Origin: an uncultured Planctomycetia bacterium
Lineage (GTDB): Bacteria > Omnitrophota > Gorgyraeia > Duberdicusellales > 4484-171
Length of the DNA stretch: 64,000 nt
Direction: 5' to 3'
Assembly (NCBI GenBank): GCA_964489445.1
Contig: CAZAYU010000003.1
Span: forward strand, 65,172-129,171
The translations under genes and the position numbers were made by a program. The notes under the pieces were generated by a model, which saw only the letters and a program-made list of their open reading frames with translations, did no database searches and had not been told where the DNA came from. This document shows positions 84 to 62,173 of this stretch, piece by piece. Within the stretch, counting starts at the first letter, position 1. Each line of letters starts with the position of its first letter.

Positions 84-1616
84 ATGAAAGTTACTTTTGT
101 GTATCCTGATTTAATTGGAAGTGCTAACTATGGAGGAATATCTTATTTAGGCATAGCTTCTTTGTCTAGTGTTTTAAAAAAAGAAGGATACAATGTGTCT
201 CTACTCCATGTTACGCAGCCACTTAAAAAAAATAAATTAATAAAAATATTAGAAGACGAAAAGACCGATCTTGTTGCGTTTTCTTCAACTACTCAAATGT
301 TTGGGTTTGTCCAACAATGGTCTGCGTGGATAAAAGAAGAAACAAACAAAATACCTCTAATCGTTGGCGGAATTCATCCCACCCTTTATCCTCATCAAAC
401 CCTAAAAGACAGTTGCGTTGACTTGTGTTGTATTGGTGAAGGAGAAGGAGCAATAGTAGAGGTTTGTCAGGCGCTTCAAGAAAAAACAGATGTTTCTGAA
501 ATTTCTAATCTTTGTGGTGTGTGGGAAGGGAAAACATTCTTCAACCCGCCTCGACCGCTTATTGCGAACTTAGATGATTTGCCATTTCCAGACCGTAAAA
601 TATTTAATTATCAAAAATTAGTGGATGGACGGGAAAACACGGCATTTTTTATGGCATCTCGAGGGTGTCCTTATGATTGTTCTTATTGTTGTAATCGGGC
701 TCTAAAGCTGGCTAGCAAAAATTGTAATAACTGGGTAAGATTTAGAAGTGTCGACAATGTTATTCAAGAAGTGCAACTAGAGACAAAAAATAATCCGCGT
801 ATAAAACGTATTGTTTTTTATGATGACATACTTGCTTTACGAAAAAGCTGGTTTTCTGAATTTACTAAAATGTATGCAAAAAATATTGGAATGCCTTTTA
901 GATGTAATATGCGTGCGGATATTTTAGCCAAAAAAGGAATGGCTTCTTTACTTAAGTCAGCAGGATGTTGGAACGTAGTAATTGGCTTGGAAAGTGGCAG
1001 TGATACAGTTAGGAGTAAAATACTTAAAAAAAATATCTCTGACGAACAAATAATTAAAGCAGGAAAAGAGTGTAAAATAGCAGGCATGGGATTATCAACT
1101 TATAATATGCTAGGCATTCCGGGTGAAGATTTTTCAGACATTCTCAAAACTGTAAAACTAAACGCAAAGATAAACGCTAACTTTATGTATGCTTCTATCT
1201 ACTATCCGTTTTCAAATACTGATTTATACGAAGTTTGTCGGAAAAAGAAAATGTTAACTGGAAGGACAGCAATTGACTATGTGGAAGAAACAGTATTAAA
1301 TTTTAATAAGAAAGAACGGGCAAGAATTATTTTTGTCCGGAACCATTTTCGTTTTCTGGTTAATAGCTATCGATTAATATCGAAGCTATCGGCAAAAAAG
1401 GAAAAGTATGTTCACAATATATTTGAAAAAGTTTTATATTCACACTTAACATCGTGGATGGTGTTTATTCCGGCTAACTGGATTTTTAAAAAAGTACGAC
1501 ATAGTCGTTTGTTATCGGTGATTGTTACAAGTATTAAAGCAGCTGCTCAACGAAGAAGGCAACGTGTTTTAGCCAGGAAAATCATTTCTAATGGTATGAA
1601 TATGAGGAACAGTTAA
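84..1616 (+). CDS. B12-binding radical SAM protein (class B rSAM, methyltransferase-like)
   Basis: N-terminal B12-binding-like domain, then CxxxCxxC (RGCPYDCSYCC) radical SAM core. First gene of the polysaccharide operon. Confidence 0.8.
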   Translation: MKVTFVYPDLIGSANYGGISYLGIASLSSVLKKEGYNVSLLHVTQPLKKNKLIKILEDEKTDLVAFSSTTQMFGFVQQWSAWIKEETNKIPLIVGGIHPTLYPHQTLKDSCVDLCCIGEGEGAIVEVCQALQEKTDVSEISNLCGVWEGKTFFNPPRPLIANLDDLPFPDRKIFNYQKLVDGRENTAFFMASRGCPYDCSYCCNRALKLASKNCNNWVRFRSVDNVIQEVQLETKNNPRIKRIVFYDDILALRKSWFSEFTKMYAKNIGMPFRCNMRADILAKKGMASLLKSAGCWNVVIGLESGSDTVRSKILKKNISDEQIIKAGKECKIAGMGLSTYNMLGIPGEDFSDILKTVKLNAKINANFMYASIYYPFSNTDLYEVCRKKKMLTGRTAIDYVEETVLNFNKKERARIIFVRNHFRFLVNSYRLISKLSAKKEKYVHNIFEKVLYSHLTSWMVFIPANWIFKKVRHSRLLSVIVTSIKAAAQRRRQRVLARKIISNGMNMRNS

Positions 1617-1629
1617 ATAAGACAAAGTA

Positions 1630-2862
1630 ATGATATATTCCATTAAAAAAAGCATTATAAAAGTTTTTTTTGTGATGTCCGGGATAGCTTTGTTCCATCT
1701 TGCAAATACGTTTATTTTAGCGAGAAGCCTTTCTATGGGGCAGATGGGTTTATTCCGAATTGTTTTAACTGTTGGTGAATTCATTTTTGTTGTTAGTCTA
1801 TTAGGCATAGATGCTTCATTTATTCGTTTTTTTTCTCGATATTCTCCTTCTCTTTATAGATGGAAGAGATATGTGTGTATGGCGATTGGTCTATCTGCAC
1901 TTTTGGCTTGTGGGTTAGTACTTATAGCCGGTAAATTTTATGAGTTTACTCCGCTAGTGGTTAGCGCGGTGGTTATAGCTGTGGTGTTAAGTATTACAAA
2001 CAGAGCGTTTAACTCTTTTCTTAGAGCGCAAAAATATTTTGGACAAGCTACATTCTTGGAAAGATCCAGTGTTTTAGTTTTTTTTGGCTTACTAATAATT
2101 CTTTTTGCTGTAAAAAAACTTACATTTAACAGTGCGCTTTTTTCTTATCTTTTTGCTGCTGCGGTTGCTGTTTTTTGGATTATTCGGATAAGCACGAGGA
2201 AAATTAAGTCTGGCAAGAAGGCTCTTCCATCAAGCATTTTTAAAGAAGGGTTAATATTTTTCGGAATTCTAGTCACAATAACAATAATGCTTAACGCTAA
2301 CCAGCTATTTATTGCTAAAATGGTTTCCTATGAAAGCTTGGCGGTTTACACTGTTACGCTTTCAATAATGAGGGTTTTTGAGTTGGCCGTTAATGCCTTG
2401 TATTATGTGTTTGTTCCCTCGCTTAACAATGATAAACCTATCGAAACCGGAAAAATATTTGCTTTTTTAGTAACTATTGGATTATTAATCGGAAGTTTCT
2501 ATTTTGTAGCCGGGAAGTCAATGATCCACTTTTTATTCCAAGGGAAGTATGATCAAGGGGCTGAATTGATTCCGTTTTTTGTAGGTATTGGTATTTGCCG
2601 AATGCTTTATATTTTTCCGGCTAGCATAGCTGGAGGCCGGGCTTCAAAAAAGTCGCTAAGGCGGTTTTTTTATGCTAATTGTTTAGCTGCAATTTTTGGG
2701 ATAATTTTGAATTATTTTTTTATTTTAAGAATGGGCATTAAAGGTGCTGCCCTTGCCACAATGTATACTTGGATGCTAGCCGCAATTTTTAGCTGTCTTG
2801 CGGTTAAAAAAGAGTTATTCTCTGGGGTGGTGGGGCGCTTAAAAACCGAGCACGATAAATAA
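1630..2862 (+). CDS. polysaccharide flippase, Wzx-like (MOP superfamily) polytopic membrane protein
   Basis: 410 aa with about 10–12 predicted TM helices. Located in the glycan locus next to a Wzy polymerase. Confidence 0.6.
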   Translation: MIYSIKKSIIKVFFVMSGIALFHLANTFILARSLSMGQMGLFRIVLTVGEFIFVVSLLGIDASFIRFFSRYSPSLYRWKRYVCMAIGLSALLACGLVLIAGKFYEFTPLVVSAVVIAVVLSITNRAFNSFLRAQKYFGQATFLERSSVLVFFGLLIILFAVKKLTFNSALFSYLFAAAVAVFWIIRISTRKIKSGKKALPSSIFKEGLIFFGILVTITIMLNANQLFIAKMVSYESLAVYTVTLSIMRVFELAVNALYYVFVPSLNNDKPIETGKIFAFLVTIGLLIGSFYFVAGKSMIHFLFQGKYDQGAELIPFFVGIGICRMLYIFPASIAGGRASKKSLRRFFYANCLAAIFGIILNYFFILRMGIKGAALATMYTWMLAAIFSCLAVKKELFSGVVGRLKTEHDK

Positions 2863-2943
2863 AATATTTTGTTTTTAACCTAAAGAACAATATTCTATAG
2901 GCGTAAAGTTGAAAAGGCGAAAGAAAGTGGAGAAGCTAATATT

Positions 2944-3684
2944 ATGTTACCAGGGTCTCATTCAGACATAAGATATCATTTCTTTGTTAAATTTCTAAAA
3001 AAAGAGTATTCGGAAAATCCTTTAGTTTTGGAAGTGGGTTCAGGTCCTGTAGGGATTAGTCATTATTGGAAAGGGAAAGTAGTTGGTCTGGATATTGACG
3101 TTCAGAAAAAGAAGAGTAAAAACCTTTTATTAGTAAAAGGAACAGCAATCCAGCTACCGTTTAGAGATAAGGAATTCGATTGCACGATAGCGATAGATTT
3201 CTTAGAACATATACCTCAAGGGTGCAGGAAAAAAGCTGTTTTAGAAATGATCCGAGTGACAAAGAAAGATATTGTTGTTGGAGTTCCCTGCGGGGATAAA
3301 GCAATAGAATGGGAAAACAAGGCTAGAAAAGTGTATGAAAAAAAAATAAATGAATGGAAGAGGGAAAATTTAATCAGAGCATCTTTAGTAAAACAAAGAG
3401 GGGTGTTTTTGATCGAACATGAAAATATGGGGTTGCCTTCCGAACAGTGGCTCTTAAAAATGGTTGAAGAAGCTGCTCAGGAAAGCACAGGGACTTTTAA
3501 TATTAAAGTCTCGGACAATGAAAGTCTTTGGGTTTGGTATTTTTATCTTTTAGCCGAGTTGAAGTATAATTATTTTCGTTGGCTAGCCACAGCGGCATTA
3601 ACCATGGCTATACATCCTTTTTTAAGAAAGATAAAATGGGCAGGATGTTATCGTAAAATTTTTACAATAAGAAGGGAAAAGTGA
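2944..3684 (+). CDS. class I SAM-dependent methyltransferase
   Basis: Motif I 'LEVGSGPVGIS' and an 'LDID' acidic motif, with a Methyltransf_11/25-like layout. Confidence 0.7.
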   Translation: MLPGSHSDIRYHFFVKFLKKEYSENPLVLEVGSGPVGISHYWKGKVVGLDIDVQKKKSKNLLLVKGTAIQLPFRDKEFDCTIAIDFLEHIPQGCRKKAVLEMIRVTKKDIVVGVPCGDKAIEWENKARKVYEKKINEWKRENLIRASLVKQRGVFLIEHENMGLPSEQWLLKMVEEAAQESTGTFNIKVSDNESLWVWYFYLLAELKYNYFRWLATAALTMAIHPFLRKIKWAGCYRKIFTIRREK

Positions 3685-4697
3685 CAAGAAATATTTTTTT
3701 ATCGATAGTTATCCCAGTAAAGAATGAAGAGGTAAATATAGGCAGATGCCTAACATCAGTAATAAATTGTATAAAGGACATGCAACAGGTAGAGGTTATA
3801 GTTGTAGATGCCTGTTCGCAAGATGGTACAGTAGAGCAGGCCTTAAAATTTCCGGTAAATATTATTCAGCTGGAATCATTTTGGACGCATACAGCTTCAG
3901 CAGGTAGGTATTTAGGATGTTTAAATACCTACGGAAAATATCTTTTTTTCATTGATGCGGATACGACACTTGAGTTGGAATTTTTAGAAAAAGCATTAGA
4001 ATTTTTGGAAAAAAATCCAGATAGTGGAGGAATTGCTGGTTTAGACCGGGAGATATATTTTGAGGGAAAAAAACAAGTAGGGCAAAGCGCAAACATCCAT
4101 AAAAGAGATTTGCAGGTAACCAAAGAGGTAGAGTATTTAGGAGCAGCAGCTTTATTTCGGCGAAAAGCCTTGGAAGAAGTGATGTATTTTAATCCGTATC
4201 TTTATTCACAGGAAGAACTAGACGTAGGACAGCGACTGAAAAAAAATGGGTGGAAACTGTATTCTTTTCCTCGTCCGATGAGTATTCACCGCACACATTC
4301 TCCTGAAGGGATAGAAATTTTTAGAAAACAAATAAAAAATAATCGATTTACAGGAGTTGGGCAGTTGATTCGTTTGTCATTCAGTAATGGTTTATTTTGG
4401 GGCAATATTTGGAGGTTCAAAAAGTTTTTTCTTTTTTTAGTCTTGGCGGTGAGCATGATTTTAGCTTTTGTTGTATTTTTGTTTAGCGGAAACAAACAAA
4501 TTATAGTTAGTGAGTGTAGTGTAGTGGCCATTGTGTATTTTTATTTAGTATTTAAAAAGCAAAGTTTAAAAAAAGCAGCAATTAGTTTTAGTAAGTGGAT
4601 TGTTGTTATTATGAACGTAGGTAAAGGGTTGGTAAGGTGTCCCCAAAATATTCACAGCTATCCACAAAATGTTAAAGTCATTCGAAAAGGAAATTAG
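3681..4697 (+). CDS. glycosyltransferase family 2
   Basis: N-terminal 'SIVIPVKNEE' and a 'FIDADT' DxD motif. C-terminal TM helices. GTGA overlap with the upstream gene. Confidence 0.75.
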   Translation: MTRNIFLSIVIPVKNEEVNIGRCLTSVINCIKDMQQVEVIVVDACSQDGTVEQALKFPVNIIQLESFWTHTASAGRYLGCLNTYGKYLFFIDADTTLELEFLEKALEFLEKNPDSGGIAGLDREIYFEGKKQVGQSANIHKRDLQVTKEVEYLGAAALFRRKALEEVMYFNPYLYSQEELDVGQRLKKNGWKLYSFPRPMSIHRTHSPEGIEIFRKQIKNNRFTGVGQLIRLSFSNGLFWGNIWRFKKFFLFLVLAVSMILAFVVFLFSGNKQIIVSECSVVAIVYFYLVFKKQSLKKAAISFSKWIVVIMNVGKGLVRCPQNIHSYPQNVKVIRKGN

Positions 4698-4698
4698 C

Positions 4699-6045
4699 AT
4701 GAATGTTGCTTTTGTTTGTACCGGAGAATTCGAGCCGTTTTTTTATGAGTGTGTTATTAAAAATAATTACGGCGTAGGCATCAATCCTTTTTATGTAGCG
4801 TTTTTTGCCGATACACGTGCGGCAGTAAAAAAAATTAAAAAAGAAATGTATCCTAAAGTCATAAGTTTCAATCAATACCTAAAAAAAGATTATTCAGATT
4901 GTCTGTTAGAGAAGGAAGAGCTAGAAGATGTAGTTTATTATGATTCTCTACGGCGGAGTTTTGGAAAAAATACAGAGATTAAACGACAGTTAATAAATAA
5001 AGCTGTGTACTATGAATACTTTTTCCGTAAGTTTTACTCCGATAATCATATTGAGGCGGTAGTGGTTTGGAACTATTTTCCGGTGACGGTTAATGTTGCT
5101 TGGCGAGTGGCAAAAAAATTAAAAATAAAAACCATTTTTTTTGAAAACGGGCCGCTTTCCAACACGCTAATGATTGATTCCCAAGGAGTTAATTTCCAAA
5201 GTTCTTTGGCGTTACGCAAGAAAGAGTTTTTTGAAAATCAAAAACTACCACCAAAGGGATGGAAGAAATATCTACAGAATTATCCGCAAAAAAGAACGGA
5301 GGCATACAAAAAGAATAGAGGGATCATGAATCCACTGCTTAAATTTTACTATGCTTTGTTAATGCGTAATAAAAAATACCGTAGAATATTTCCAGAATTA
5401 ACGGATGATAATATCCGGAAGTCGTTATGGAAAAAAATGTTTTCAAGAATTATAATATCAAAAAAAATTAAGCTACCCAAGAAATTTGTGTTTATTCCAT
5501 TTCAATATTCACACGATACACAAGTGCTAGTTAATTCTCCGTTTGTTGCCAATATGGAAGCGTTTTTAGATTCTTGTTATTCGGCTTTAAAAGAAGTAGA
5601 TTCCTGTTGTCGAATAGTAGTTAAAGAGCATCCTGATGATTTTTGTCGAAAAAGCTATAAAAAGCTAAGAAAAAAATATCCTGATGTTGTTTGGTTAGCA
5701 AAGTACGATATCCAAGAGCTAATAAGAAAATCCCAAGCAGTAATTACTATTAATTCTTCTGTAGGTATTGCGGCTTTGGTTGAGGAGAAGCCAGTTATTA
5801 CATTGGGGAAAAGTTTTTATAATATTGATGGTGTAGTGTATTATTCTCCAAATTTGCCTGAGCTAAGAAAAAGTATGAAGAAAGTGTTAAGCGGGGTAAT
5901 TAATAAACCGTTGATTAATAGATTTCTTTATTATTTAAGATTTGAATATTTAGCAGAAGGTAATCCACGTTATTGCACGGTAGAAAGCTTAGCGGGGGCA
6001 TGCAGAAAATTAGAAAAAATACTAATGGAGAAAAATAATGAATAA
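4699..6045 (+). CDS. putative capsule polysaccharide biosynthesis protein (Capsule_synth / KpsS-KpsC-like)
   Basis: Resembles the KpsS/KpsC-like family in its 'HPDD' and 'NSSVGIAAL..KPVITLG' segments, recalled from memory. The ATG at 4699 has an AAGGAAA RBS and lies just after the upstream stop; the track ORF starts at 4669. Confidence 0.4.
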   Translation: MNVAFVCTGEFEPFFYECVIKNNYGVGINPFYVAFFADTRAAVKKIKKEMYPKVISFNQYLKKDYSDCLLEKEELEDVVYYDSLRRSFGKNTEIKRQLINKAVYYEYFFRKFYSDNHIEAVVVWNYFPVTVNVAWRVAKKLKIKTIFFENGPLSNTLMIDSQGVNFQSSLALRKKEFFENQKLPPKGWKKYLQNYPQKRTEAYKKNRGIMNPLLKFYYALLMRNKKYRRIFPELTDDNIRKSLWKKMFSRIIISKKIKLPKKFVFIPFQYSHDTQVLVNSPFVANMEAFLDSCYSALKEVDSCCRIVVKEHPDDFCRKSYKKLRKKYPDVVWLAKYDIQELIRKSQAVITINSSVGIAALVEEKPVITLGKSFYNIDGVVYYSPNLPELRKSMKKVLSGVINKPLINRFLYYLRFEYLAEGNPRYCTVESLAGACRKLEKILMEKNNE

Positions 6046-7447
6046 AAAAATAATTTCTATGTTAGCTATTTGCGGGTTATTGGCAATTTGTGTGTCATTG
6101 TTTTCTTATTATCGGCAGGCGTATTACTTATTATTTTTTGGGATTTTGGGATCTAGCGCGTTTATAGTAAAAAAAGGAAAGATTACTATTTATGATTGGT
6201 TAATTGTACTAGTAGTAACCATACCGCTACACACATTACGAATAGGAGGGCAAACGCATTTTTTGCGGTTAACGGAAGTTGCATTTATTCCATTTTTCTT
6301 TTCTTATCTTATTAAAAAAAGAAATGATGCCGAGTCTTTTAAAATACGGAAAGAGTTTTTCTGGATATTTGCATTTTTAATCGTAAATATTTTAGCGATT
6401 TCTAAATCATTGTATCCTTTGGTTAGTATTAAAAAAGTGGCTATCCTGGGATATCTAATATTATTTTGTTATTTAGTGAGTGATATGTTTAAAACAATAA
6501 AAAAAGAAGAGTTAGTAATTAAAGCGATGATTGGTATATCCGCCTGTTCGGCAGTATTGGCGGTGTTTCAGTCATTTTTGCCTCAGCTGCATATTTTATC
6601 CACTAAGGCTTTGACTGTGATAGGTGGAATTACTATTTACCGTGCTTCTGCTGGGTGGAAAGACCCAAACTACTACGCTCTTTATTTGGGGATGAATGCG
6701 GCGCTTTGTTTATCTTTTCTAGTTTCGTCAAGAATTAAAAAAACAACTTTTTTACGAGTTTGTTTTTTTCTACAAATAGCCGGAATTATCGCCACTTTTT
6801 CTAGGATGGGTATTCTTTGCTTTATTTTTGTGTTGGTTTACATGATGTTTTCGTATAATAAACGAAAATTAGGTTGGATAATGTTAATTATAATGATGCT
6901 AAGTGGAGTGGGCATAGTGAGCTCTATTGAGAAAATTTATGAAAAATATCCACTTGCTCAAGCGTATATTTTTCGGCAACCGAAACTAGAAACATTGCAA
7001 CAATATCCACGGTTAATTTTAGTTCATCGATGGGATGCGTTTAGGGCTAATTGGAAAATGTTTTTAGATAATCCTTTTTTGGGTGTTGGTCCGTTTATGG
7101 CTATGGATAATTATGCTGAATATAGGCCGAAAGATGCGTTATGGTATACACGAGAAATGCTTGATTCGCATAATCAATATCTTCAGTTGCTTGCTGAAAA
7201 AGGAATATTTGGGTTTTTATTTTTTATTGGGTTTATTTTTTTAGTTTGGAAGAGATTAAGTAAATATATTGGGCAGAAAAAAGGGCCACAAGCTGAGGCA
7301 ATTGCTATTGGGTTAAGAGGAAGCTTGTTCGTTTACTTGGTGGCATGTTTGGTGGCTCAGACTACGCATGAAGTACAATTTTGGTTGGTTGTCGGTTTAT
7401 CGCTAGCATTATTTAATATTGGTGACGAGAAAATTAATGAGCAGTAA
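6038..7447 (+). CDS. O-antigen polymerase/ligase family protein (Wzy)
   Basis: Polytopic membrane protein with a Wzy_C signature '...HNQYLQLLAEKGIFGF'. Confidence 0.78.
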   Translation: MNKKIISMLAICGLLAICVSLFSYYRQAYYLLFFGILGSSAFIVKKGKITIYDWLIVLVVTIPLHTLRIGGQTHFLRLTEVAFIPFFFSYLIKKRNDAESFKIRKEFFWIFAFLIVNILAISKSLYPLVSIKKVAILGYLILFCYLVSDMFKTIKKEELVIKAMIGISACSAVLAVFQSFLPQLHILSTKALTVIGGITIYRASAGWKDPNYYALYLGMNAALCLSFLVSSRIKKTTFLRVCFFLQIAGIIATFSRMGILCFIFVLVYMMFSYNKRKLGWIMLIIMMLSGVGIVSSIEKIYEKYPLAQAYIFRQPKLETLQQYPRLILVHRWDAFRANWKMFLDNPFLGVGPFMAMDNYAEYRPKDALWYTREMLDSHNQYLQLLAEKGIFGFLFFIGFIFLVWKRLSKYIGQKKGPQAEAIAIGLRGSLFVYLVACLVAQTTHEVQFWLVVGLSLALFNIGDEKINEQ

Positions 7448-8591
7448 AAAAATAATATTTTTAGAGCAGTATTCTAAAGTAAGTGGTGGACAAAAAGTAT
7501 TGCTATCGGTTATTTCCGGATTGAATAAAGATTGTTATTCTCCCTTGGTTATTCTACCGGATAAGGGAGAGTTATTTGTAACTTTAAAAGAGGCAGACAT
7601 CGATGTTCAGATTCTGCCGATGGGATATTATTCTGTGGGCAAAAAAAAATTAGTGGACGTGGTAAGGTATTCTTTTCGATTGCCTTTTTTAATTTTTTTC
7701 CTTAACCAAATTATTAAGAAGGAGAAAGCGAATTTAGTTTATGCCAATGGAGCAAGAACCTTTATTTGGGGGGTTGTAGCTTGCACTCTAACTAAAACTC
7801 CGATGGTTTGGCATCTGCACAGTATTTTTTATACTAAAGCTGTAAAATGGGCGTGTATTTATTTTGGAAAGATGTGTGTTGTGAAAAAGATTATTGCGGT
7901 TTCTGATTCTGTGCGTAGGCCTTTGGCAGCGCTAGGAGAAAAAATAGAAATAATTTACAATGGAATTGATGTTAAGCATTTTTGTTCTTTATCCAGAGAT
8001 AGAGAACAGAGTTGCAAAAGAAGAAAGCTATTAATTATTGCTGGGGGGTTATTGATAGAATGGAAAAACCAAGAAGATCTAATTAAAGCTGCTGGTGTGT
8101 TTATTAAAAAAAGTAATATTCCCGTTGAATTTTTGATTGTTGGAGGCCCCCTATATAAAACCCAGGAGGGAGAAGGTTATCAGCGGAGGCTTAAGAAGCT
8201 AACCATGAGTTTGGGTTTAGAGAACGATATTATTTTTACTGGCCATATAAAGAAAATGACTGATATTTTGCAGAGGGCAGATATCTTGGTGATTACTTCT
8301 AAAATGCCAGACCCTTGCCCGTTGCTTATGCTAGAGGCCATGGCAAGCGGCTTGGCTGTGATCTCGACTAACTTTGGTGGTCCTGCTGAAATAATAGAAG
8401 ATGGGCAAGACGGGCTCCTATACTTGTCTGGTAATTACCAGCAGTTAGCTGAAAAGCTTATCTATTTAGCAAAAAAAAGCAACCGGATAAAAGAAATAGG
8501 AAAAGCAGCACGACAGAAGATTGAGAAGCAATATAGCCAAATAATATTTATAAACAAAGTAAACAAAGTACTTAATTCTCTTTTTTTATGA
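7437..8591 (+). CDS. glycosyltransferase family 4 (GT-B)
   Basis: C-terminal 'EAMASGLAVISTNFGGPAEIIEDGQDGLL' (EX7E-type motif). The ATG at 7437 is preferred over the TTG at 7419. Confidence 0.8.
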   Translation: MSSKKIIFLEQYSKVSGGQKVLLSVISGLNKDCYSPLVILPDKGELFVTLKEADIDVQILPMGYYSVGKKKLVDVVRYSFRLPFLIFFLNQIIKKEKANLVYANGARTFIWGVVACTLTKTPMVWHLHSIFYTKAVKWACIYFGKMCVVKKIIAVSDSVRRPLAALGEKIEIIYNGIDVKHFCSLSRDREQSCKRRKLLIIAGGLLIEWKNQEDLIKAAGVFIKKSNIPVEFLIVGGPLYKTQEGEGYQRRLKKLTMSLGLENDIIFTGHIKKMTDILQRADILVITSKMPDPCPLLMLEAMASGLAVISTNFGGPAEIIEDGQDGLLYLSGNYQQLAEKLIYLAKKSNRIKEIGKAARQKIEKQYSQIIFINKVNKVLNSLFL

Positions 8592-10036
8592 ATGTTTTAT
8601 TTTTAAACCCACCATTTTTTGATAATTTTTCTCGCTCTCAAAGAAGTCCAGCAGTAACAAAAAGTGGAACATTGTATTACCCGATTTGGCTTAGCCTTGC
8701 GGCAGGGGTATTGATGAAAGAGGGTTTTAACGTTTGTTTGGTTGATGCGGTTGCGCAAAGAATAAATAATAAAAATTTAATAAAAAAAATAAAAGAATTT
8801 AATCCAAAACTATTAGTTGTGGATACGTCTACGCCGAGTATTTATAACGATATTAATATTGCTGCAGAGTGTAAAAAGAATGTTCCCAACTGCTTTGTGG
8901 TCTTAGTTGGTCCACACGTTTCTGTTTTGGCAGAGGAGACCCTAGAGAATAACATGGAAATAGATGCTTTAGCGAGAGGAGAGTATGACTATACAATACG
9001 TGATTTAGCGGTGGTAATAAAGAAACGAAAAATGCTAGAGAGTGTTGAGGGTTTAAGTTTTAGGCGCGGAATGAAAATTATTCATAATCCTCAACGCTCG
9101 AAGATTCAGAATTTGGATGCTCTTCCGTTTGTTAGCCGTGTGTATAAACAATTTCTAGATGTGAAGAAATATTTTTTTGCTGCAGCTAATTATCCGGAAG
9201 TTCAAATATTCACGGCACGAGGGTGCCCGTTTAATTGTTTCTTTTGCGTTTATCCACAAGTAATGCATGGTAATGCTTATAGGGTCAGAAGTCCAGATAA
9301 TGTGGTAGAAGAATTTGATTTTATTGCTCGTAATTTTCCTAGTGTTAAAGAAGTAGTTATTGAGGATGATACCTTTACTGTTGATCAGCGTAGAGTGGAA
9401 TCTATTTGTGATAAACTCATCAAGAAAAAGAATAGGTTGTTTTGGAATGCTAACGTTCGAGCAGATTTGGACATTGGCCTAATGCGAAAGATGAAAGAGG
9501 CAGGGTGCAGATTGGTAATAACTGGGTTTGAGAGTGGGGAACAAAAAATCTTAAATAATATTGGAAAAGGAATAACAATTGAGCAATCAGAAGAATTTTT
9601 TCAAAATGCCCGAAAAGCAAAGCTATTAGTACACGCTGCGTTAATGGCTGGAAATCCTGGAGAAGATAAAAAAACGCTAGAAAAAACTTTTTCTTTGGCT
9701 AAAAAAGGGTTTCCGGATACTGTGCAATTTTTTCCGTTAATTGTTTATCCAGGAACAAAAGCGTTTCAATGGGCACAAAAGAATAATTTTCTCAAAACTG
9801 TTGATTACCAACAATGGGTAACAAAAGAAGGGCTTCACAATTGCTTGGTTGATTTACCGGATATTTCTGCGCAAGATATGGTTAATTGGTGCAATGATAG
9901 CCGGAGGAAGTATTACTTAAATTTAAAGTATATTTTTTACAAAATATTTCAGATGGTACGTTATCCTCGAGAGATTAAACGTACAGTGAAAGCAGGGTTA
10001 AAATTTAGCAAACATCTCTTAACATTTAAAAAATGA
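8588..10036 (+). CDS. B12-binding radical SAM protein (second paralog)
   Basis: B12-binding-like N-terminal domain, then 'ARGCPFNCFFCVYP' CxxxCxxC. ATGA overlap with the GT4 stop. Confidence 0.8.
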   Translation: MNVLFLNPPFFDNFSRSQRSPAVTKSGTLYYPIWLSLAAGVLMKEGFNVCLVDAVAQRINNKNLIKKIKEFNPKLLVVDTSTPSIYNDINIAAECKKNVPNCFVVLVGPHVSVLAEETLENNMEIDALARGEYDYTIRDLAVVIKKRKMLESVEGLSFRRGMKIIHNPQRSKIQNLDALPFVSRVYKQFLDVKKYFFAAANYPEVQIFTARGCPFNCFFCVYPQVMHGNAYRVRSPDNVVEEFDFIARNFPSVKEVVIEDDTFTVDQRRVESICDKLIKKKNRLFWNANVRADLDIGLMRKMKEAGCRLVITGFESGEQKILNNIGKGITIEQSEEFFQNARKAKLLVHAALMAGNPGEDKKTLEKTFSLAKKGFPDTVQFFPLIVYPGTKAFQWAQKNNFLKTVDYQQWVTKEGLHNCLVDLPDISAQDMVNWCNDSRRKYYLNLKYIFYKIFQMVRYPREIKRTVKAGLKFSKHLLTFKK

Positions 10037-11181
10037 ATAGTCTCTTTATTTTTTGGACGTCTTTGCTGTTAATAAGTTATGTCTATGGAGGGTATCTAGG
10101 GCTAAGTATTTTTTTAGGATGGTTATTTTCGAAGCCGGTTAAACAGGAAGATATATTCCCAAAGATTACCTTATTAATAGCGGCATTTAATGAACAAGGA
10201 GTTATTAAGGAAAAGCTAGACAATTCTTTAAAGCTAGATTATCCCGAAGATAAGATAGAAATAGTAGTTTGTTCGGAGTCTAGCGATCAAACGAACAAGA
10301 TAGTTAGCGAGTATGCATCGTGCGGGGTTAAGCTTTTTTCTTATCAAAAAAGACAAGGGAAAAGCGCAATGATCTATAAAACTATATCTAAAATTTCTGG
10401 AGAAATAATAGTATTTTCGGATGCGAATGCCATATATGAAGAGGATGCGCTAAAAAAAATAAGCAGGAATTTTACTGAAAAAAACATTGGGGCGGTGGTA
10501 GGTAGACTAAACATTATTAATCCGGAAGAGTCAGCGGTTAGCCAAGGGGAATCGCTATACAAAAAATATGAAGCGTTGCTACGCAAAAGCAATTCTCAAA
10601 TGAGATCGGTGCTAGGTGTTGACGGGTCAATGTTTGCGATCCGGAGAAGCGTCTATCTTCCGATAAGTGCAGACAGAGGCGATGACTTTGAATTAGCAGT
10701 AAGGATTTTAATTAAAGGTTTTGGCGTTGTGTTTGAGCCGGAAGCGATATCGTATGAGAAAGGTTCTGTTCGCGAATTTTCGGAAGTTAAAAGAAAAGTT
10801 AGGATTGTTTCTTGGTTTTTAAAAAGTTCGTTTATTTTACTTAAAGAAATGGTAGTTTCTTTTAAGGGAAAATTAATCTTTCAGCTGATTTCTCATAAAA
10901 TATTGAGGTGGTTTTCTCCGTTTTTCTTTATTTCTTTACTGGTATCGTCTTTTTTTCTTCAAAGAATTAATTTTTTTTATGGAGCAGCGTTCTATAGCCA
11001 GATTATTTTTTATTTATTCGGTTTGGTTGGTTGGGGGTTGTCTGGAAAAACTAACAGAAAAATCCCTGGCATCTTAAAGATCCCTGTATATTTTTTAGTA
11101 TTTAACTATGCTTTTATCGTCGGAGTATTCCAAGGGTTATTTAGGAAGCAGAAACCATTTTGGGAAACGTCTCAACGGTAG
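10033..11181 (+). CDS. membrane glycosyltransferase family 2
   Basis: N-terminal TM helix, a GT2 catalytic core ('IVFSDANA', D..D) and C-terminal TM helices. ATGA start overlap. Confidence 0.7.
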   Translation: MNSLFIFWTSLLLISYVYGGYLGLSIFLGWLFSKPVKQEDIFPKITLLIAAFNEQGVIKEKLDNSLKLDYPEDKIEIVVCSESSDQTNKIVSEYASCGVKLFSYQKRQGKSAMIYKTISKISGEIIVFSDANAIYEEDALKKISRNFTEKNIGAVVGRLNIINPEESAVSQGESLYKKYEALLRKSNSQMRSVLGVDGSMFAIRRSVYLPISADRGDDFELAVRILIKGFGVVFEPEAISYEKGSVREFSEVKRKVRIVSWFLKSSFILLKEMVVSFKGKLIFQLISHKILRWFSPFFFISLLVSSFFLQRINFFYGAAFYSQIIFYLFGLVGWGLSGKTNRKIPGILKIPVYFLVFNYAFIVGVFQGLFRKQKPFWETSQR

Positions 11182-11896
11182 CAGCGGGAGAAAAAAAAAT
11201 TTTAGGGAGAATAGTTCTAATAATTATTTTAAAATCAAACCAAAGTGACCAACGCTTAATATAAAAAATATCACACAAAACCCTTTTCTTAATGGCCATG
11301 TTACTTCCTCGGTATCCATTTATTTGGGCCCACCCAGTCAATCCAGGCTTAATCCTGTGGCGGAATTCGTATTCAGCGATAGATTTTTTAAATTTATTTA
11401 CAAAGTAAGGTCTTTCTGGGCGAGGCCCCACTAAGCTCATGTCTCTTTTTAGGATGTTGATCAGCTGAGGTAATTCGTCCAAATGAGAAGTACGTAACAA
11501 CTGGCCAATTCTTGTGCATTGCGAATTATCTTCGCTGGGCCACATTGGGCCAGAGCAATTTTCGCTATTTTCTGGCATAGTTCGAAACTTATATATCCAA
11601 AAAGAGCTTCCATTTTCCTTACATCTTTTTTGACGGTAGAATATTTTTCCGGGGTAGTTTATTTTTATCATTAAAGAGATTAAAATAAATAGAGGGGAGA
11701 GAAAAAACAGGCCGACAGCAGAGAGGATAATATCTATTGTTGGTTTTATGAATTTGTAAGAAAAGCCGTCGATGCTTCTGCGCGTTGTCTGGCAATTTTT
11801 CGGTTTTATCTTTGACAGACAGAAAGTAGGAGGGGAAGATTTACGAACAGATGAATATTGATCTTCGGATATTGAGTTGTATTTACAGTTTTTCAT
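11141..11896 (-). CDS. initiating sugar-phosphate transferase (bacterial sugar transferase, PglC/WbaP C-terminal-domain type)
   Basis: PF02397-type motifs 'SLVGPRPERPYFV' and 'KPGLTGWAQING'. One N-terminal membrane helix. Confidence 0.8.
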   Translation of the reverse strand: MKNCKYNSISEDQYSSVRKSSPPTFCLSKIKPKNCQTTRRSIDGFSYKFIKPTIDIILSAVGLFFLSPLFILISLMIKINYPGKIFYRQKRCKENGSSFWIYKFRTMPENSENCSGPMWPSEDNSQCTRIGQLLRTSHLDELPQLINILKRDMSLVGPRPERPYFVNKFKKSIAEYEFRHRIKPGLTGWAQINGYRGSNMAIKKRVLCDIFYIKRWSLWFDFKIIIRTILPKIFFSPAATVETFPKMVSAS

Positions 11897-11928: not shown

Positions 11929-13620
11929 TTATACTTTTGAAAGGCGAGAGCAGCATTGCATAAGATAATCCTTGTCTCTCGGCTTTATTCTCGTGAATTT
12001 TATTCCAGAGTTAAATGGTCCTCGACCATTTTCCAGCAAAGAAACCTCGTGAGACCAGATTACTTTACCCTTAGCTATTATCGAGGTTCCGTTAATAGCT
12101 TGTATTTCTAAATTAAGAATATCTTTCGTGTTCGGCTTATGCTCGCTACTAAAGCTTAATCCGGAATTACTAAAGTTAAGGCTAAAAGCTTGATATTTAA
12201 TATAAGGTTCTTTTAAGTGACTATATATTATATCAGTGGATAAAGGAAATCGTAAATTGTTTCTTAATTCTTTTCTCTGTTTATTTTTCTTAGCTGATCG
12301 AGGACTATCAGGTAAACTTATTGCAAAGGAACAACCTAAAGCAAAACCGGCAAAGAGCCCTAAAAGCATGTTCAGTGGAAGGTTTGGTCTTAAGGGATGC
12401 AAAGGTATTTGCGGTGGATCAATAATTTTAATTTTTGATGTATTGTTTATTCGGGAAATCAAAATTTGTAAATTAATTTTTTTACTCAAGAGGTCTTCGT
12501 AGATTCTCCTTTGGATGCTAAGATTGCTTAACATGCTAGATAATTTTGGTTGACTGGCGAGAGTCTTTTTGAGAGTTTTTGCGTAATTGTCATTTGATTC
12601 GGAAAGCACTTTTCGTTTGCTCTCTAGTGATTTTTTTTCTAAGCTGTATGATTCAATTTCGGAATCAATTATTTTAGTTTTTTCGTTTTCCAGTGTATTT
12701 TCTATCTCACGGATATTTTTGTAGGCGTTGATTACTTCTGGATGAAAAGAGGTATATTCGGTTGTAAGATTAGACAGAGAAATTTCTGCTGCTTGCAGCT
12801 TAGATTGAAGATTGTTAATTGTTTGGTTATTTGTAATAAATGGAAGTGATAAACTATTGATGCCGCTGGTAGCCAACTCTTTGCTTACCGCAGCCGCCTT
12901 AGTATTAACTTTTTGGATTTCAGAATCAACATCAATTAAGGATGAATCAAAACTAGCAAATCTTTTTAAATTAAGCACTATCTCTGTTTCTGGCAAGATA
13001 AATACCCCTTCTTTCTTTATGTACTCTTCAAGTTCTTTTTCAGCCTCAAGAATGGTGTTCAGCGTTGATTGCATAGTGCTGTCGATTGCCAAAAAAGAAT
13101 TATTAAGGGATATTTCTTGAGCAGTATTTATTGAATTGCTATAAGCAGAAATTAACGCAGTAGACAAAGATTTTGCTAGTGAGGGATCGGTATTCTCTAT
13201 TTTTAATTCTAAGATATTAGTTTTGTTTATTGGCACAGAAGATATGGTTTTTTGGAGGCGCTCTATATCGATAAAGTCTTTATCGCTTTGTTCTAGCAAA
13301 CGGGATGCAAGAATCTTGCTTTCTAGCGCTTTAGAAATGTTTGTTCTGCTTTTAATTATTTCTGCTTGGTCTTGTAAGAATTCTTCATTTTTTTTGTACG
13401 AAGGGGTGGTTTCTGAAGGGTTAAGGCTTTCTTCTTTTAGCATTATTTTACTATTTGTCTGATAAACAGGTTTGATGAGTAGCGTAGAAATAAAAACAAC
13501 GGAAAGGGTAGTAAATGTAAGTATAAATACTATACCCTTTTTTTCCCATAGTATTTGCCCGGCAGTCTTGGGAGAGGTTTTCATTTCAAGTAATGTTAAA
13601 TCGTTATTTGTTGGTTCCAT
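11929..13620 (-). CDS. polysaccharide co-polymerase (Wzz/PCP) with C-terminal PilZ domain, no tyrosine-kinase domain
   Basis: N-terminal Wzz-like TM segment, a long coiled-coil periplasmic region, then a second TM. The cytoplasmic tail has PilZ motifs RNNLRFP (RxxxR) and NFSNSG ((D/N)xSxxG). Confidence 0.7.
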   Translation of the reverse strand: MEPTNNDLTLLEMKTSPKTAGQILWEKKGIVFILTFTTLSVVFISTLLIKPVYQTNSKIMLKEESLNPSETTPSYKKNEEFLQDQAEIIKSRTNISKALESKILASRLLEQSDKDFIDIERLQKTISSVPINKTNILELKIENTDPSLAKSLSTALISAYSNSINTAQEISLNNSFLAIDSTMQSTLNTILEAEKELEEYIKKEGVFILPETEIVLNLKRFASFDSSLIDVDSEIQKVNTKAAAVSKELATSGINSLSLPFITNNQTINNLQSKLQAAEISLSNLTTEYTSFHPEVINAYKNIREIENTLENEKTKIIDSEIESYSLEKKSLESKRKVLSESNDNYAKTLKKTLASQPKLSSMLSNLSIQRRIYEDLLSKKINLQILISRINNTSKIKIIDPPQIPLHPLRPNLPLNMLLGLFAGFALGCSFAISLPDSPRSAKKNKQRKELRNNLRFPLSTDIIYSHLKEPYIKYQAFSLNFSNSGLSFSSEHKPNTKDILNLEIQAINGTSIIAKGKVIWSHEVSLLENGRGPFNSGIKFTRIKPRDKDYLMQCCSRLSKV

Positions 13621-13628: not shown

Positions 13629-14417
13629 TTATTCTGAATCCGCTAAATTTTCAATCGCTTCTACGTGACGATAGTTTATATAGGTATCAGCAAGTGGTTT
13701 TATGTTATCGTTAAAAAAAGATAAAAAATCTTTTATTTTCCCGACAAATTTTTTAGGAACAAAAACTATATCCCCTGCTTTTAGCGGGATATCTTCCTTG
13801 AGGTCTCCCTTTGATATAACATTTAAAAGGTTAGCAGACAGTATTTTTGGGCTATCCGAGTAAGCTTTACGGATAACCAGCACACTTCTTAAATGCGCAA
13901 ATTCTTTATACCCTTCAGCTGTAGCTAAGGCTTCCAGGACAGTTAATGGTCGGGACATTCTGTATATTCCTGGACGTTTTACTTCTCCTAGTATTAGAAT
14001 TCGTTGACTGCCAAAACCACTGACAATAATGGACACTTGAGGATCTTTTATATATTTGGCTAATCTTAAAGAAACCTCGTTTTTTAATTGTTCCGGCAGC
14101 ATATCTACTGCTTTGATTTCTCCGGCAAGAGGAAGAGACAGCCAGCCATCAGGGCGAATAGTGACTTCCTTGTTCAAATCTTCATTGCGCCAAACAGATA
14201 CTTCAATTTTATCTCCAACTCCTAAAATATATTGGGCGTTATCAAATTCTGCTCCAAAAGAAGGATTCACTAGTAAAGAAAGAAAACAAGTAAGTAGAAG
14301 CAGAGTAAATTTCAAATAAAATCTTGCTAAGTAATGATTAGTGTAAAGAGTAGACGTATTGCTTAAGTTACTACTATCCAAGTGTTTACAAATATATTTT
14401 TTGTTTGTATGAGTCAT
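13629..14417 (-). CDS. polysaccharide export outer-membrane protein (Wza/OPX: Poly_export + SLBB)
   Basis: Signal peptide, then 'YILGVGDKIEVSVWRNEDL...IRPDGWLSLPLAGEIKA' Poly_export motifs. The track ORF runs to 14684 and overlaps the tRNA, so it was trimmed to the in-frame ATG at 14417. The true start is uncertain. Confidence 0.7.
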   Translation of the reverse strand: MTHTNKKYICKHLDSSNLSNTSTLYTNHYLARFYLKFTLLLLTCFLSLLVNPSFGAEFDNAQYILGVGDKIEVSVWRNEDLNKEVTIRPDGWLSLPLAGEIKAVDMLPEQLKNEVSLRLAKYIKDPQVSIIVSGFGSQRILILGEVKRPGIYRMSRPLTVLEALATAEGYKEFAHLRSVLVIRKAYSDSPKILSANLLNVISKGDLKEDIPLKAGDIVFVPKKFVGKIKDFLSFFNDNIKPLADTYINYRHVEAIENLADSE

Positions 14418-14647
14418 AATAGTGTTATTTTCCTCGAAAAAGCTTATCATTGAATATACCATATTGCTGGAGGAATAGTCAATGTAGATAGCAATAAGTT
14501 TTGTAAACGTTTCCATCAAAAAGGCCTTATTGATGGCAGATTTCTTATCAGCGTGTATTTTTTCTTGGGTATTTTTAGAGAAAATGGTATAATTAGTCCC
14601 AATATTAGCGCTATTGATTAAAGCAGAAAGCGAATATTCTCTGAAAT

Positions 14648-14721
14648 GGCGGTGTAGCTCAGCCTGGCAGAGCAAACGGCTCATACCCGTTATGTCGGTG
14701 GTTCAAGTCCACTCGCCGCCA
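14648..14721 (+). tRNA. tRNA-Met (anticodon CAT; elongator Met or Ile2-lysidine type, not initiator)
   Basis: 74-nt cloverleaf folded by hand. Acceptor stem GGCGGTG/CGCCGCC, D-arm GCTC/GAGC, anticodon stem AACGG/CCGTT with loop CTCATAC, T-arm GGTGG-TTCAAGT-CCACT. CCA is not encoded. Confidence 0.85.
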
Positions 14722-14832
14722 TTTATATTGTTAATCTAAGGCAGCGAGAAATAGACAAAAGCATTTCTTTAAGACTTAGCTTCTTGGATACAATAGCCTT
14801 CGGCAATCTCGACTGTGCCGAGATATTGTATA

Positions 14833-20168: not shown

Positions 20169-20270
20169 CACAGCCCGTTAAGATGTTGGGGCCTAGGCAC
20201 TTAAGAATTACTATCCATGTTGAAAAAGATCGTTATAAATGGTAATCTTTTATTGGGGGGCAAATGTAAA

Positions 20271-20669
20271 ATGGCTCAAAATAAATGCCGATTAGGAAAA
20301 AAACTTCCTAAATATTTTCGAGGGTTTACGTTAATTGAAGTAATGATTTCTGTTGCTATTTTAACAGTAGTTGTTACTAGCTTGCTAATGTCTATAGTGT
20401 CTTGTGTGATGTTAAACCAGGCTAGCAGCAATTTAATAGTTGCCGCTAGCGATGCGCAAGATATCTTAGAGGATATAAAGAGCCTGCCAAACATTTATAA
20501 CGATATAGATAGTTATTTGCCACCAGGACTAAATAGTTTAACTAATGAAACGGTTAGTGTTAATGTCCTTCAAGTAAGCGAAGGATTAAAAGAGGTAACA
20601 GTTAATGTTGAGTGGGTGGATAAACAAAGGCAAAATAGTTTTCTGTTAACAACAAGGATTAACCGATAG
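20271..20669 (+). CDS. type IV minor pilin / pseudopilin (prepilin-type N-terminal methylation domain)
   Basis: 'RG|FTLIEVMISVAIL' class III signal with Glu+5. ATG at 20271 with a GGGGGG RBS; the track ORF starts at 20217. Confidence 0.65.
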   Translation: MAQNKCRLGKKLPKYFRGFTLIEVMISVAILTVVVTSLLMSIVSCVMLNQASSNLIVAASDAQDILEDIKSLPNIYNDIDSYLPPGLNSLTNETVSVNVLQVSEGLKEVTVNVEWVDKQRQNSFLLTTRINR

Positions 20670-20670
20670 C

Positions 20671-21273
20671 ATGAAAAGCGTTAATAAGAATAAAAAAAAA
20701 TATCGGATAAGGCGCACCAAAAGCTTAACTCTTGTTGAAACTTTGTTGGCGGTTTCAATTTTTATGGTCGTTCTTATGGGGTTTATGGCTAGCTTGAGTT
20801 TAGGCGAGGTATTCTTTCCTTTAAACTCAGCTAATGTAGATATGAGATCAAATGTTAGAGTAGCTATAAATTGGATTGTAAAAGATGCCAGACAGGCAGT
20901 AAATTGGGATATTGCCAATAATAATCCAGGAAGTTCTCATCTTAAGTTTCGTCGAGTCAACGGGTTAAACATTGACACAGGAGAATATTTACTGGATGAA
21001 GATTATATTGAGTACAATTATGATGCCAGTTCTTTTAAAATTGTTCGGAATTTAGTCAATTCTGAGGGAAATATTATCCGCTCTTGGGAATTTAATAATA
21101 TTAACCAAGCGCCTTTTTATACTCAACATAATGAAGAAGTTCAAGAATTTAATGAGAATTCATTTAGGGACAACGGAAAATTAATTGTGATAATCTCGGG
21201 GCAAAAAGAAATTAGAGGAGAAATGAACGCAGATTTTTCTCTAAGATCGGATGTAAAGGTGAGAAATGAATAA
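20671..21273 (+). CDS. minor pilin-like protein (non-canonical prepilin N-terminus)
   Basis: 'KSLTLVETLLAVSIFMVVL' hydrophobic pilin-like helix with Glu+5-like spacing but no Gly at −1. Confidence 0.45.
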   Translation: MKSVNKNKKKYRIRRTKSLTLVETLLAVSIFMVVLMGFMASLSLGEVFFPLNSANVDMRSNVRVAINWIVKDARQAVNWDIANNNPGSSHLKFRRVNGLNIDTGEYLLDEDYIEYNYDASSFKIVRNLVNSEGNIIRSWEFNNINQAPFYTQHNEEVQEFNENSFRDNGKLIVIISGQKEIRGEMNADFSLRSDVKVRNE

Positions 21274-23625: not shown

Positions 23626-23628
23626 AAA

Positions 23629-24066: not shown

Positions 24067-24068
24067 AA

Positions 24069-25808: not shown

Positions 25809-25869
25809 ATCTTAAAAACAAATAATGTAGTCCTGAGAAGATTAAATTTTTTAAATAAAAAGAAGCAAT

Positions 25870-29477: not shown

Positions 29478-29487
29478 TTTTTGGTTC

Positions 29488-61021: not shown

Positions 61022-62173
61022 TTAGGCGAGGATTATTCTATTTTTTCCTTCTTTTTTTGCTCTATACAGAGCTTTATCTGCTTTTTTAATAAGTGGATAT
61101 TTTTCCAATGAATCTTTTGGGAAGGAAGCAACGCCGATACTTATTGTAAATTTACTTCCAGAAATATTTTTTTGTTCTATAGAGCGGCGAATTCTTTCTC
61201 CTAAAAGAAATGCTTCTTGCTTGTTATTTCCGGGTAAGATAATTGAAAATTCTTCTCCTCCATAACGGCATAAAATATCAATTTTGCGGCAATTACGTTT
61301 GAGGCGCTTACTTAACCCTTTTAAAGCGTTATCGCCTTGGATATGTCCGTGAGAGTCGTTAAATTTTTTGAAATCATCAATATCAATCATCATTATTGAA
61401 AGCGGTAATTTTGCTGATTCAGCTTTTAATAATTCTTCATCTAATCTATATTGGAAATAGCCATAATTCCAAAGGCTGGTTAGTGAATCAGTGTGAGATC
61501 TAACTAAAGTGTGTTCAAAACTTTGAGAGTTTTCAATAGCTCCGCGTGCTTGCTCAATAAACATATCGAATATTTTTATATCATCCTTAGCTAGTGGTTT
61601 TTTAGTGAAATAATTATCAACAACAATTACTCCGGCCGGCTCATTTTTAATTGTTAAAGGGTGAATTAAAAATTCTCCTAAGTTAAGCTTTTTAACAAGT
61701 AAATCGTTTCTCATTTTTTTAGCTCGACTTTTTTTAATCCAGCATGTTTGGTTTTCTTCTAAAGTGTCAAATATTAGACCACTTGTTTTATCCAGAGGAA
61801 AAGATAATGAGCGGATAAAGTCTAAAAATTTTGGACGGATTTCACTACACTTAATGTGATGATAATTTTTAATTAAACTGTGTAAATCCTTTTTTTCTTG
61901 TTCAATATGCTTCCAGATAGTTAGTGCTTCTTTATTATCCATTGCTCCGATTCCCATAAATCCGGTAATTTTTTTTCCTTTTTTATCTACTAAAAATATA
62001 CTGGCCCGATTAAATCCTAATCCTCCGTGAGCAGTTAATCCAGTTAAGATTATGTATGTTATTTCGTCAAGACGTAAAGTAGTACGCATTAATTTAGTAA
62101 GTTCATAGAAGACAGAAAGCTGGGACCGAACTTTTTTTAGTTCTTCTTGAAGGGTCTTTGAATGTTGTTTCAT
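61022..62173 (-). CDS. GAF-domain diguanylate cyclase (active GGDEF: RYGGEEF)
   Basis: GAF-like N-terminal half. An 'RYGGEEFSIILPG' active site and an RxxD I-site are present. Confidence 0.85.
   Translation of the reverse strand: MKQHSKTLQEELKKVRSQLSVFYELTKLMRTTLRLDEITYIILTGLTAHGGLGFNRASIFLVDKKGKKITGFMGIGAMDNKEALTIWKHIEQEKKDLHSLIKNYHHIKCSEIRPKFLDFIRSLSFPLDKTSGLIFDTLEENQTCWIKKSRAKKMRNDLLVKKLNLGEFLIHPLTIKNEPAGVIVVDNYFTKKPLAKDDIKIFDMFIEQARGAIENSQSFEHTLVRSHTDSLTSLWNYGYFQYRLDEELLKAESAKLPLSIMMIDIDDFKKFNDSHGHIQGDNALKGLSKRLKRNCRKIDILCRYGGEEFSIILPGNNKQEAFLLGERIRRSIEQKNISGSKFTISIGVASFPKDSLEKYPLIKKADKALYRAKKEGKNRIILA

Follow-up and report, generated by a model that had tools for sequence, protein, structure and literature searches.

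Given that a tyrosine phosphorylation cycle holds the regulatory role in Wzc-type polysaccharide co-polymerases (PCPs), we questioned which signal could act on a PCP that has no tyrosine kinase. The case concerns a gene of an uncultivated Omnitrophota bacterium (11929..13620, minus strand), located in a 64-kb window (the whole stretch of DNA analysed, 64,000 nucleotides of contig CAZAYU010000003.1). The gene is an open reading frame (ORF) of 563 amino acids (aa) plus a stop, with an ATG start, and its product, here called PCP-PilZ, scores above the Pfam gathering thresholds for Wzz, GNVR and PilZ. The original prediction was that a PilZ domain, a receptor for cyclic di-GMP (c-di-GMP), takes the place of the kinase module in this protein, and that the architecture was uncharacterised. 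In line with the latter, full-text searches of the literature (with many subscription papers outside their coverage) yielded no description of a PilZ-PCP fusion. PCP-PilZ is a real, conserved and so far undescribed PCP variant. By analogy with Alg44 and BcsA, it is probably a c-di-GMP-gated PCP of a Wzx/Wzy-dependent exopolysaccharide (EPS) pathway, built on a Wzc-like scaffold.

Domain architecture of the co-polymerase

The predicted PCP topology, with two transmembrane (TM) helices enclosing a long helical periplasmic region, was recovered by both hydropathy and an AlphaFold2 (AF2) model. TM1 lies at approximately aa 29-49 (nt 13474-13536, minus strand; modelled helix 20-47) and falls within an N-terminal Wzz domain (aa 23-99, 13324..13554, minus strand), which matched PF02706 with 28.6 bits (cut-off 25.5), as had been proposed as a check. 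The periplasmic domain (approximately aa 52-413, 12382..13467, minus strand) consists of long helices modelled with a predicted local distance difference test score (pLDDT) of 80-92, and is followed by a GNVR/Pro-Gly-rich segment that leads into TM2 (together aa 364-436, 12313..12531, minus strand; TM2 approximately 416-436 by hydropathy). The GNVR match spans aa 364-434 (PF13807, 33.9 bits, cut-off 27.7), and residues P406, N417 and G425 of this segment are invariant in an alignment of 20 family sequences. While the mean pLDDT of the full-length model, built on a shallow alignment, was 68, the periplasmic helical domain was predicted well, and the best matches of the model in the Protein Data Bank (PDB) by Foldseek were Wzc, then KpsE, Wzz and WzzE (E down to 1.5e-10, probability 1.0). 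With two TM helices around a large helical periplasmic domain, Wzz and GNVR matches, and a genomic context of outer-membrane polysaccharide export (OPX), Wzx and Wzy genes, the protein belongs to the PCP superfamily.

Beyond TM2 lies a tail of 127 aa, beginning with a basic linker (aa 437-451, PDSPRSAKKNKQRKE; 12268..12312, minus strand) that was modelled with low pLDDT. The stretch directly after TM2 (PDSPRSAKKNKQRKELRNNLR) is strongly basic, which puts the tail on the cytoplasmic side of the membrane, like that of Wzc. Failure of this tail to match the PilZ profile had been named beforehand as a possible refutation; aa 452-557 (11950..12267, minus strand) matched PF07238 with 32.0 bits (cut-off 22.5, E 1.6e-7), over profile positions 2-100 of 102. 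Both PilZ signatures read from the sequence, LRNNLRFP and NFSNSG, are in place and correctly spaced: the RxxxR motif is R453-N-N-L-R457 (12250..12264, minus strand) and the (D/N)xSxxG motif is N482-F-S-N-S-G487 (12160..12177, minus strand), with 24 residues between them.

A separate model of the tail (aa 365-563, built on a 19-sequence alignment) reached a pLDDT of 82.7 overall and 87-96 over the PilZ part, which forms the expected beta-barrel of six strands (99-181 in model numbering) plus a C-terminal helix (183-198). When this model was compared with the PDB using Foldseek, the best 43 matches were all PilZ domains, many of them solved with c-di-GMP bound, and included MotI/DgrA, YcgR, BcsA, Alg44, VCA0042, PP4397, MapZ, MrkH and PA0012. 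A sequence profile of the family tails also matched the PilZ domain of Bacillus subtilis YpfA/MotI (5vx6, E 2.6e-4), and its GNVR/TM2 part aligned to residues 380-447 of Wzc (7nhr); the PilZ domain therefore starts right where the Wzc kinase starts. A chance occurrence of the PilZ motifs was rejected on the HMM match, the fold and conservation. The tail is thus a bona fide PilZ domain by profile, motifs and predicted fold, and we describe it as ligand-competent, binding of c-di-GMP being likely from the motifs it retains.

The predicted absence of a tyrosine kinase domain and of a Tyr-rich tail was likewise confirmed. PCP-PilZ has no Walker A motif and no match to any P-loop family in Pfam, and the tail has four scattered Tyr residues, none of them in the last 15 positions, and so no C-terminal Tyr cluster. 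We also built a hidden Markov model (HMM) of the kinase domain only, from 46 Wzc-type sequences (79 positive-control matches). This HMM gave 0.9 bits on the PCP-PilZ ORF, and among the six-frame ORFs of the 64-kb window and of loci L001-L013 none scored above noise. Nor was a Wzb/CpsB-type phosphatase found in Pfam scans of window ORFs of at least 120 aa. These scans agree with the earlier statement that no Wzb or Wzc gene lies nearby.

Conservation, origin and locus of the fusion

A survey of homologues had been proposed to establish whether the same fusion recurs. The encoded 563-aa protein is present, identical, on 14 public contigs. We rejected an assembly or frameshift artefact as the source of the fusion, given that these contigs derive from several sources; an artefact is also contradicted by the same architecture in about 17 clusters (50% identity). 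A word-indexed search returned only four proteins with this architecture (100, 70, 38 and 36% identity), all other matches being Wzc-like at 25% identity or less. An exhaustive HMMER search of 1.84 billion cluster representatives returned 21,818 PCP-like matches, and it was in about 17 clusters that the alignment continued through the tail. Among 20 aligned family sequences, Pfam matches were obtained for PilZ in 18 (best E 8.3e-17), for GNVR in 19 and for Wzz in 15. In genome contigs, a scan with the first four-sequence alignment found no relatives; a scan with a four-sequence subfamily alignment found the fusion in three GTDB genomes, all of them Candidatus Omnitrophota. An Omnitrophota origin of the window itself follows from its AccA protein, for which the best named matches (71-79% identity) came exclusively from Omnitrophota or Omnitrophica MAGs.

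Relatives at 20-70% identity keep the tail together with both motifs. Across the 19 tail-bearing sequences compared, R453 and R457 of RxxxR, G487 and G539 are invariant, the first position of (D/N)xSxxG is D or N in every tail, and its Ser is present in 17 (Gly instead in P0028 and P0141). Mean pairwise identity was 28.6% for the PilZ domain, 27.5% for the periplasmic domain and 15.9% for the linker, which is the least conserved region and varies in length (15-35 residues in the family). The PilZ domain has thus been kept as tightly as the PCP core.

We assessed the origin of the fusion with a neighbour-joining tree of 152 sequences, calculated without bootstrap from the PCP core alone. The 15 PilZ-bearing proteins that it contains all fell into one clade, so the fusion looks like a single event. 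The sister group of this clade is mixed, comprising 48 kinase-fused and 19 short PCPs. The best NCBIfam matches of the PCP core were pepcterm_ChnLen (TIGR03007, 87.6 bits) and EpsF (TIGR03017, 61 bits); identity with either equivalog was rejected, given cut-offs of 279 and 423 bits, respectively. The mixed sister group, and the fact that the NCBIfam profiles end shortly after TM2, suggest that PilZ may be an addition to a short-tailed PCP. The tree is also compatible with a kinase having been swapped for PilZ, and both histories may be entertained. The prediction that PilZ "replaced" the kinase module therefore holds for position, with PilZ right after TM2 as is the Wzc kinase, and need not hold as an evolutionary history.

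PCP-PilZ is the middle gene of a minus-strand operon. An OPX gene lies 8 nt upstream (13629..14417, minus strand; Poly_export 76 bits, plus SLBB), and a small phosphoglycosyltransferase (PGT) gene lies 32 nt downstream (11141..11896, minus strand; Bac_transf 208.8 bits, EPS_sugtrans 270 bits). The boundaries given for the OPX gene in the original prediction stood: the longest OPX ORF (13629-14684, minus strand) runs at its 5' end into a tRNA-Met gene (CAT anticodon; 14647-14722, plus strand), so the start must be downstream, and 14417 gives a protein of 262 aa. Its identification as an OPX also stood, whereas its description as a canonical Wza did not. Wza-type OPXs combine PES with further SLBB domains (D2/D3) and a C-terminal outer-membrane helix (D4). 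The neighbour has PES and one SLBB, aligns to Wza residues 54-232 only, is 262 aa long versus 359-394 for solved Wza chains, and has no counterpart of the Wza outer-membrane helix. It resembles the short OPXs 7xfd and 9n9a as well as PslD, and also matches pepcterm_export and EpsY. A separate beta-barrel in the outer membrane is the proposed partner of short OPXs (PMC12802240), and none was identified nearby.

The minus-strand operon converges on a plus-strand biosynthesis operon (84..11181, annotated by Pfam) with the gene order B12-binding radical SAM enzyme, Wzx-like flippase (1630-2862, plus strand; Polysacc_synt 27.3 bits, just under the cut-off of 28.2), methyltransferase, glycosyltransferase (GT) of family GT2, Capsule_synth protein, Wzy (6038-7447, plus strand; Wzy_C), GT4, a further B12-binding radical SAM enzyme and GT2. 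The same gene set lies beside PCP-PilZ in L001, L007/L008, L009, L011 and L012, where the enzymes are 40-60% identical and PCP-PilZ only 22-38%. The arrangement of OPX, PCP-PilZ and PGT convergent with GT, radical SAM, Wzy and Wzx genes recurs in six independent loci. The OPX gene is directly upstream of PCP-PilZ in L002 and L006 too.

The two B12-binding radical SAM enzymes of the biosynthesis operon (84-1616 and 8588-10036, plus strand) are conserved in every related locus (L001, L007, L009, L011, L012 and L013), and from this conserved pair one may suspect that a sugar is modified in an unusual way, perhaps by methylation at carbon. The Capsule_synth protein (KpsC/KpsS-like; 4669-6045, plus strand) sits inside a Wzx/Wzy-type cluster, and its family is usually tied to ABC-transporter-dependent capsules.

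Proposed control by c-di-GMP and competing explanations

PCP-PilZ shares features with several known systems. Like Wzc (the PCP-2a type; Escherichia coli K30, 7nhr; Wza-Wzc complexes 9r62-9r6b), it has an N-in/C-in topology with two TM helices, a helical periplasmic domain, GNVR/Pro-Gly at TM2, a regulatory domain directly after TM2 and an OPX partner in a Wzx/Wzy locus. Unlike Wzc, with which identity is below 25%, it bears a PilZ beta-barrel rather than a P-loop bacterial tyrosine kinase (BY-kinase), and the Walker motifs (A, A' and B), Tyr cluster and Wzb that define PCP-2a are missing. The PCP-2b or split type (CapA-CapB, EpsF-EpsG, PEP-CTERM) is defined by an adjacent BY-kinase gene, which is also missing here. 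PCP-1 (Wzz) proteins have very short cytoplasmic termini and an O-antigen context without OPX, whereas PCP-PilZ has its 127-aa tail and an adjacent OPX. Kinase-less and split PCPs (pepcterm_ChnLen, EpsF, Myxococcus xanthus EpsV, Pseudomonas aeruginosa PslE/PslD, 9v6l and 9v75) resemble it in the PCP core and in having a short OPX partner. However, alignments of the TIGR03007 and TIGR03017 profiles are confined to the PCP core, stopping near TM2 and leaving the tail uncovered; PslE aligns over TM2 only, and there was no PilZ domain in any kinase-less or split PCP match.

Known c-di-GMP receptors of polysaccharide export supply the other half of the comparison. Alg44, which needs c-di-GMP for polymer production, has a cytoplasmic PilZ domain with RxxxR and DxSxxG motifs, and a TM helix connects this domain to a helical periplasmic one that forms a bridge to an outer-membrane exporter. 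The Alg44 PilZ domain (4rt0) was among the top structural matches of the tail. The order of domains is nevertheless reversed: Alg44 has an N-terminal PilZ, one TM helix and a HlyD-like/MFP domain, and works with the synthase Alg8 in a synthase-dependent pathway, whereas here a C-terminal PilZ is attached to a two-TM PCP (the periplasmic domain being PCP, not HlyD) in a Wzx/Wzy pathway with PGT, flippase and Wzy. We regard Alg44 as the closest functional analogue by this comparison, the resemblance being one of function only. In BcsA (4hg6 and 4p00, also among the top Foldseek matches), PilZ likewise follows the last TM helix and its RxxxR linker is tethered to the membrane domain; in contrast, BcsA PilZ gates a GT active site in the same polypeptide and PCP-PilZ has no catalytic domain. 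HfsJ of the Caulobacter holdfast is a c-di-GMP-binding glycosyltransferase. There, as with EpsW-EpsZ in Myxococcus, the input falls on a GT or PGT via separate proteins, whereas here the sensor is fused to the co-polymerase; both are similar to PCP-PilZ in that the signal acts directly on the Wzx/Wzy machinery and not on transcription (for EpsW-EpsZ, PMC12802240).

A possible supply of the second messenger is encoded within the window. A candidate diguanylate cyclase (61022..62173, minus strand; GGDEF 147.9 bits) has an intact GGEEF at aa 305 and an RxxD I-site (RKID) upstream, and is a possible source of the c-di-GMP signal. A GAF protein whose GGDEF domain is degenerate (22312-23625, plus strand) and a stand-alone MshEN protein of 145 aa (23629-24066, plus strand) are encoded in a pilus or type II secretion-like cluster (20217-34934, plus strand) that includes pseudopilins, two T2SSE ATPases with MshEN, PilM and a secretin. 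The GGEEF cyclase, the degenerate GGDEF protein and the MshEN proteins, of which there are three in this cluster, together imply that c-di-GMP signalling is present in the organism, and with this cluster there may be a second surface system under c-di-GMP control. PilZ genes have been noted in Omnitrophota (bioRxiv 10.1101/2023.11.21.568195). A further observation concerns L009: within a few kb upstream of its PCP-PilZ locus (2298-5470) are genes for two proteins with a ComFB domain, of which one is fused to CheR, and for a PilZ protein that stands alone. ComFB has recently been reported to be a receptor for cyclic dinucleotides.

In solved PilZ proteins (BcsA, YcgR, Alg44), the RxxxR linker wraps the ligand and re-orients the neighbouring domain. 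A comparable sequence of events can be proposed for PCP-PilZ. The PCP ring would couple Wzy polymerisation to export via the adjacent short OPX; upon a rise in c-di-GMP, which the GGEEF cyclase of the window might for instance supply, the nucleotide would clamp the RxxxR linker onto the PilZ barrel, and the clamped linker would fix the geometry of TM2, the cytoplasmic ring or both. That geometry would in turn switch on polymerisation and export, with c-di-GMP binding in the role held in Wzc by the tyrosine phosphorylation cycle. Nucleotide binding, control of the oligomer and the direction of regulation (activation) are all our inferences here. Originally it had been proposed that c-di-GMP rather than tyrosine phosphorylation gates export at this locus, and gating of the PCP by c-di-GMP is the explanation that we favour.

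Several observations weigh against that explanation. In one Omnitrophota metagenome-assembled genome (MAG; L010, JAHJHC010000061.1), the PCP-PilZ gene (10001-11737) lies away from EPS genes (OPX, PGT or GT), flanked by genes for two large secreted proteins, one of 1036 aa with an LTD domain and one Ig-like of 596 aa, then a PilM-PilN fusion and a secretin. An orthologue in GCA_043826625.1 (L013 2164-3471, JBDRPW010000054.1), encoded in the same type of locus (OPX-PCP-PGT convergent with GT2-rSAM-GT4-Wzy), has 435 aa and stops 9 aa after TM2, and no PilZ remnant was found in the 159-bp gap between it and the PGT gene; the tail is therefore a regulatory add-on that PCP function can do without in at least one lineage. 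Most of the family has the fuller RRxxxR, whereas the motif reads LRxxxR in the window protein and its closest relative, a difference that might lower affinity or change stoichiometry. Finally, a BY-kinase or phosphatase could be encoded outside the analysed 64 kb of the genome.

The missing first Arg of RRxxxR bears on one alternative in particular, namely that the tail has a PilZ fold without c-di-GMP binding and serves only as a structural or oligomerisation module or as a protein adaptor, as do the non-binding PilZ proteins of type IV pili. The modest PilZ Pfam score (32 bits) would fit this explanation, and non-binding PilZ proteins exist, the tetrameric Xanthomonas PilZ (3ph1, 3rqa) being among the weaker Foldseek matches. 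However, both ligand-contacting motifs are kept in all 19 tails while the linker drifts to 16% identity, which is the pattern expected for a maintained binding site, and the best structural matches are ligand-bound PilZ domains. We therefore consider a non-binding tail improbable. A less improbable, though still unlikely, alternative grants that PilZ binds c-di-GMP and has it recruit or activate a partner at the cytoplasmic face instead of the PCP ring, most plausibly the PGT encoded just downstream, so that initiation rather than polymerisation and export would be controlled. In the window, as in L001, L007/L008, L009, L011 and L012, the next gene after PCP-PilZ is the PGT gene, and in the Myxococcus EPS pathway the initiating PGT is activated post-translationally by a small signalling protein (PMC12802240). 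Yet adjacency of OPX, PCP and PGT is common in EPS loci under any regulation, and a PGT gene also follows the tail-less orthologue in L013.

Equally doubtful as the non-binding tail is a separately encoded BY-kinase elsewhere in the genome that still drives the PCP, in the style of split PCP-2b or PEP-CTERM systems, with PilZ as an extra layer of input. The chain-length determinants pepcterm_ChnLen and EpsF, the best NCBIfam matches of this PCP, pair with separate kinases, and 59 kinase-less short PCPs are among its nearest relatives; moreover, the part of the genome analysed amounts to 64 kb. Split kinases are normally encoded directly beside their PCP, however, and no kinase lies beside the PCP in the window or in seven related loci (flanks of up to 10 kb). 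Split systems also rely on a short C-terminal PCP tail that docks onto the kinase and activates it, and the position of that tail is here taken by a folded domain of 110 aa.

Direct c-di-GMP control of polysaccharide secretion is textbook knowledge for synthase-dependent systems (BcsA, Alg44, PelD). For Wzx/Wzy pathways, a 2025 paper describes the understanding of post-translational regulation as still incomplete (PMC12802240). If c-di-GMP gates PCP-PilZ, this would be the first case of c-di-GMP acting as a direct, post-translational switch within the core of a Wzx/Wzy-dependent pathway. We give roughly even chances to the broader proposition that PCP-PilZ constitutes a new PCP class, in which binding of a second messenger, not a tyrosine phosphorylation cycle, sets ring assembly or activity, and that it is an Omnitrophota-specific invention, possibly tied to attachment to host or prey. 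The presence of PilZ at the kinase position suggests that what is regulated is the state of the PCP ring at its cytoplasmic face, and that evolution can plug different sensors into this face. The role of the PCP-2 cytoplasmic domain could then be tested with a simple ligand, and no phosphorylation cycle would be needed. Omnitrophota are a widespread and uncultivated phylum whose members are very small and in part predatory or dependent on a host, and PCP-PilZ would offer a handle on surface-polymer control among them. A modular c-di-GMP-switchable PCP could also serve the engineering of polysaccharide production.

Other features of the window and related loci

In L010, an intein-containing ribonucleotide reductase is encoded upstream of PCP-PilZ. 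Elsewhere in the window, a GH94-family glycan phosphorylase-like protein, a HAD/trehalose-phosphatase fusion and a GH65 phosphorylase are encoded at 35441-38065 (minus strand) and 48609-52656 (plus strand); these genes represent sugar phosphorolysis and are unrelated to the PCP-PilZ finding. Across the window (1-64000; 30-37% GC), each 2-kb bin has a positive GC skew (0.09-0.29) regardless of gene strand, and nearly all genes are on the plus strand, consistent with a single replichore.

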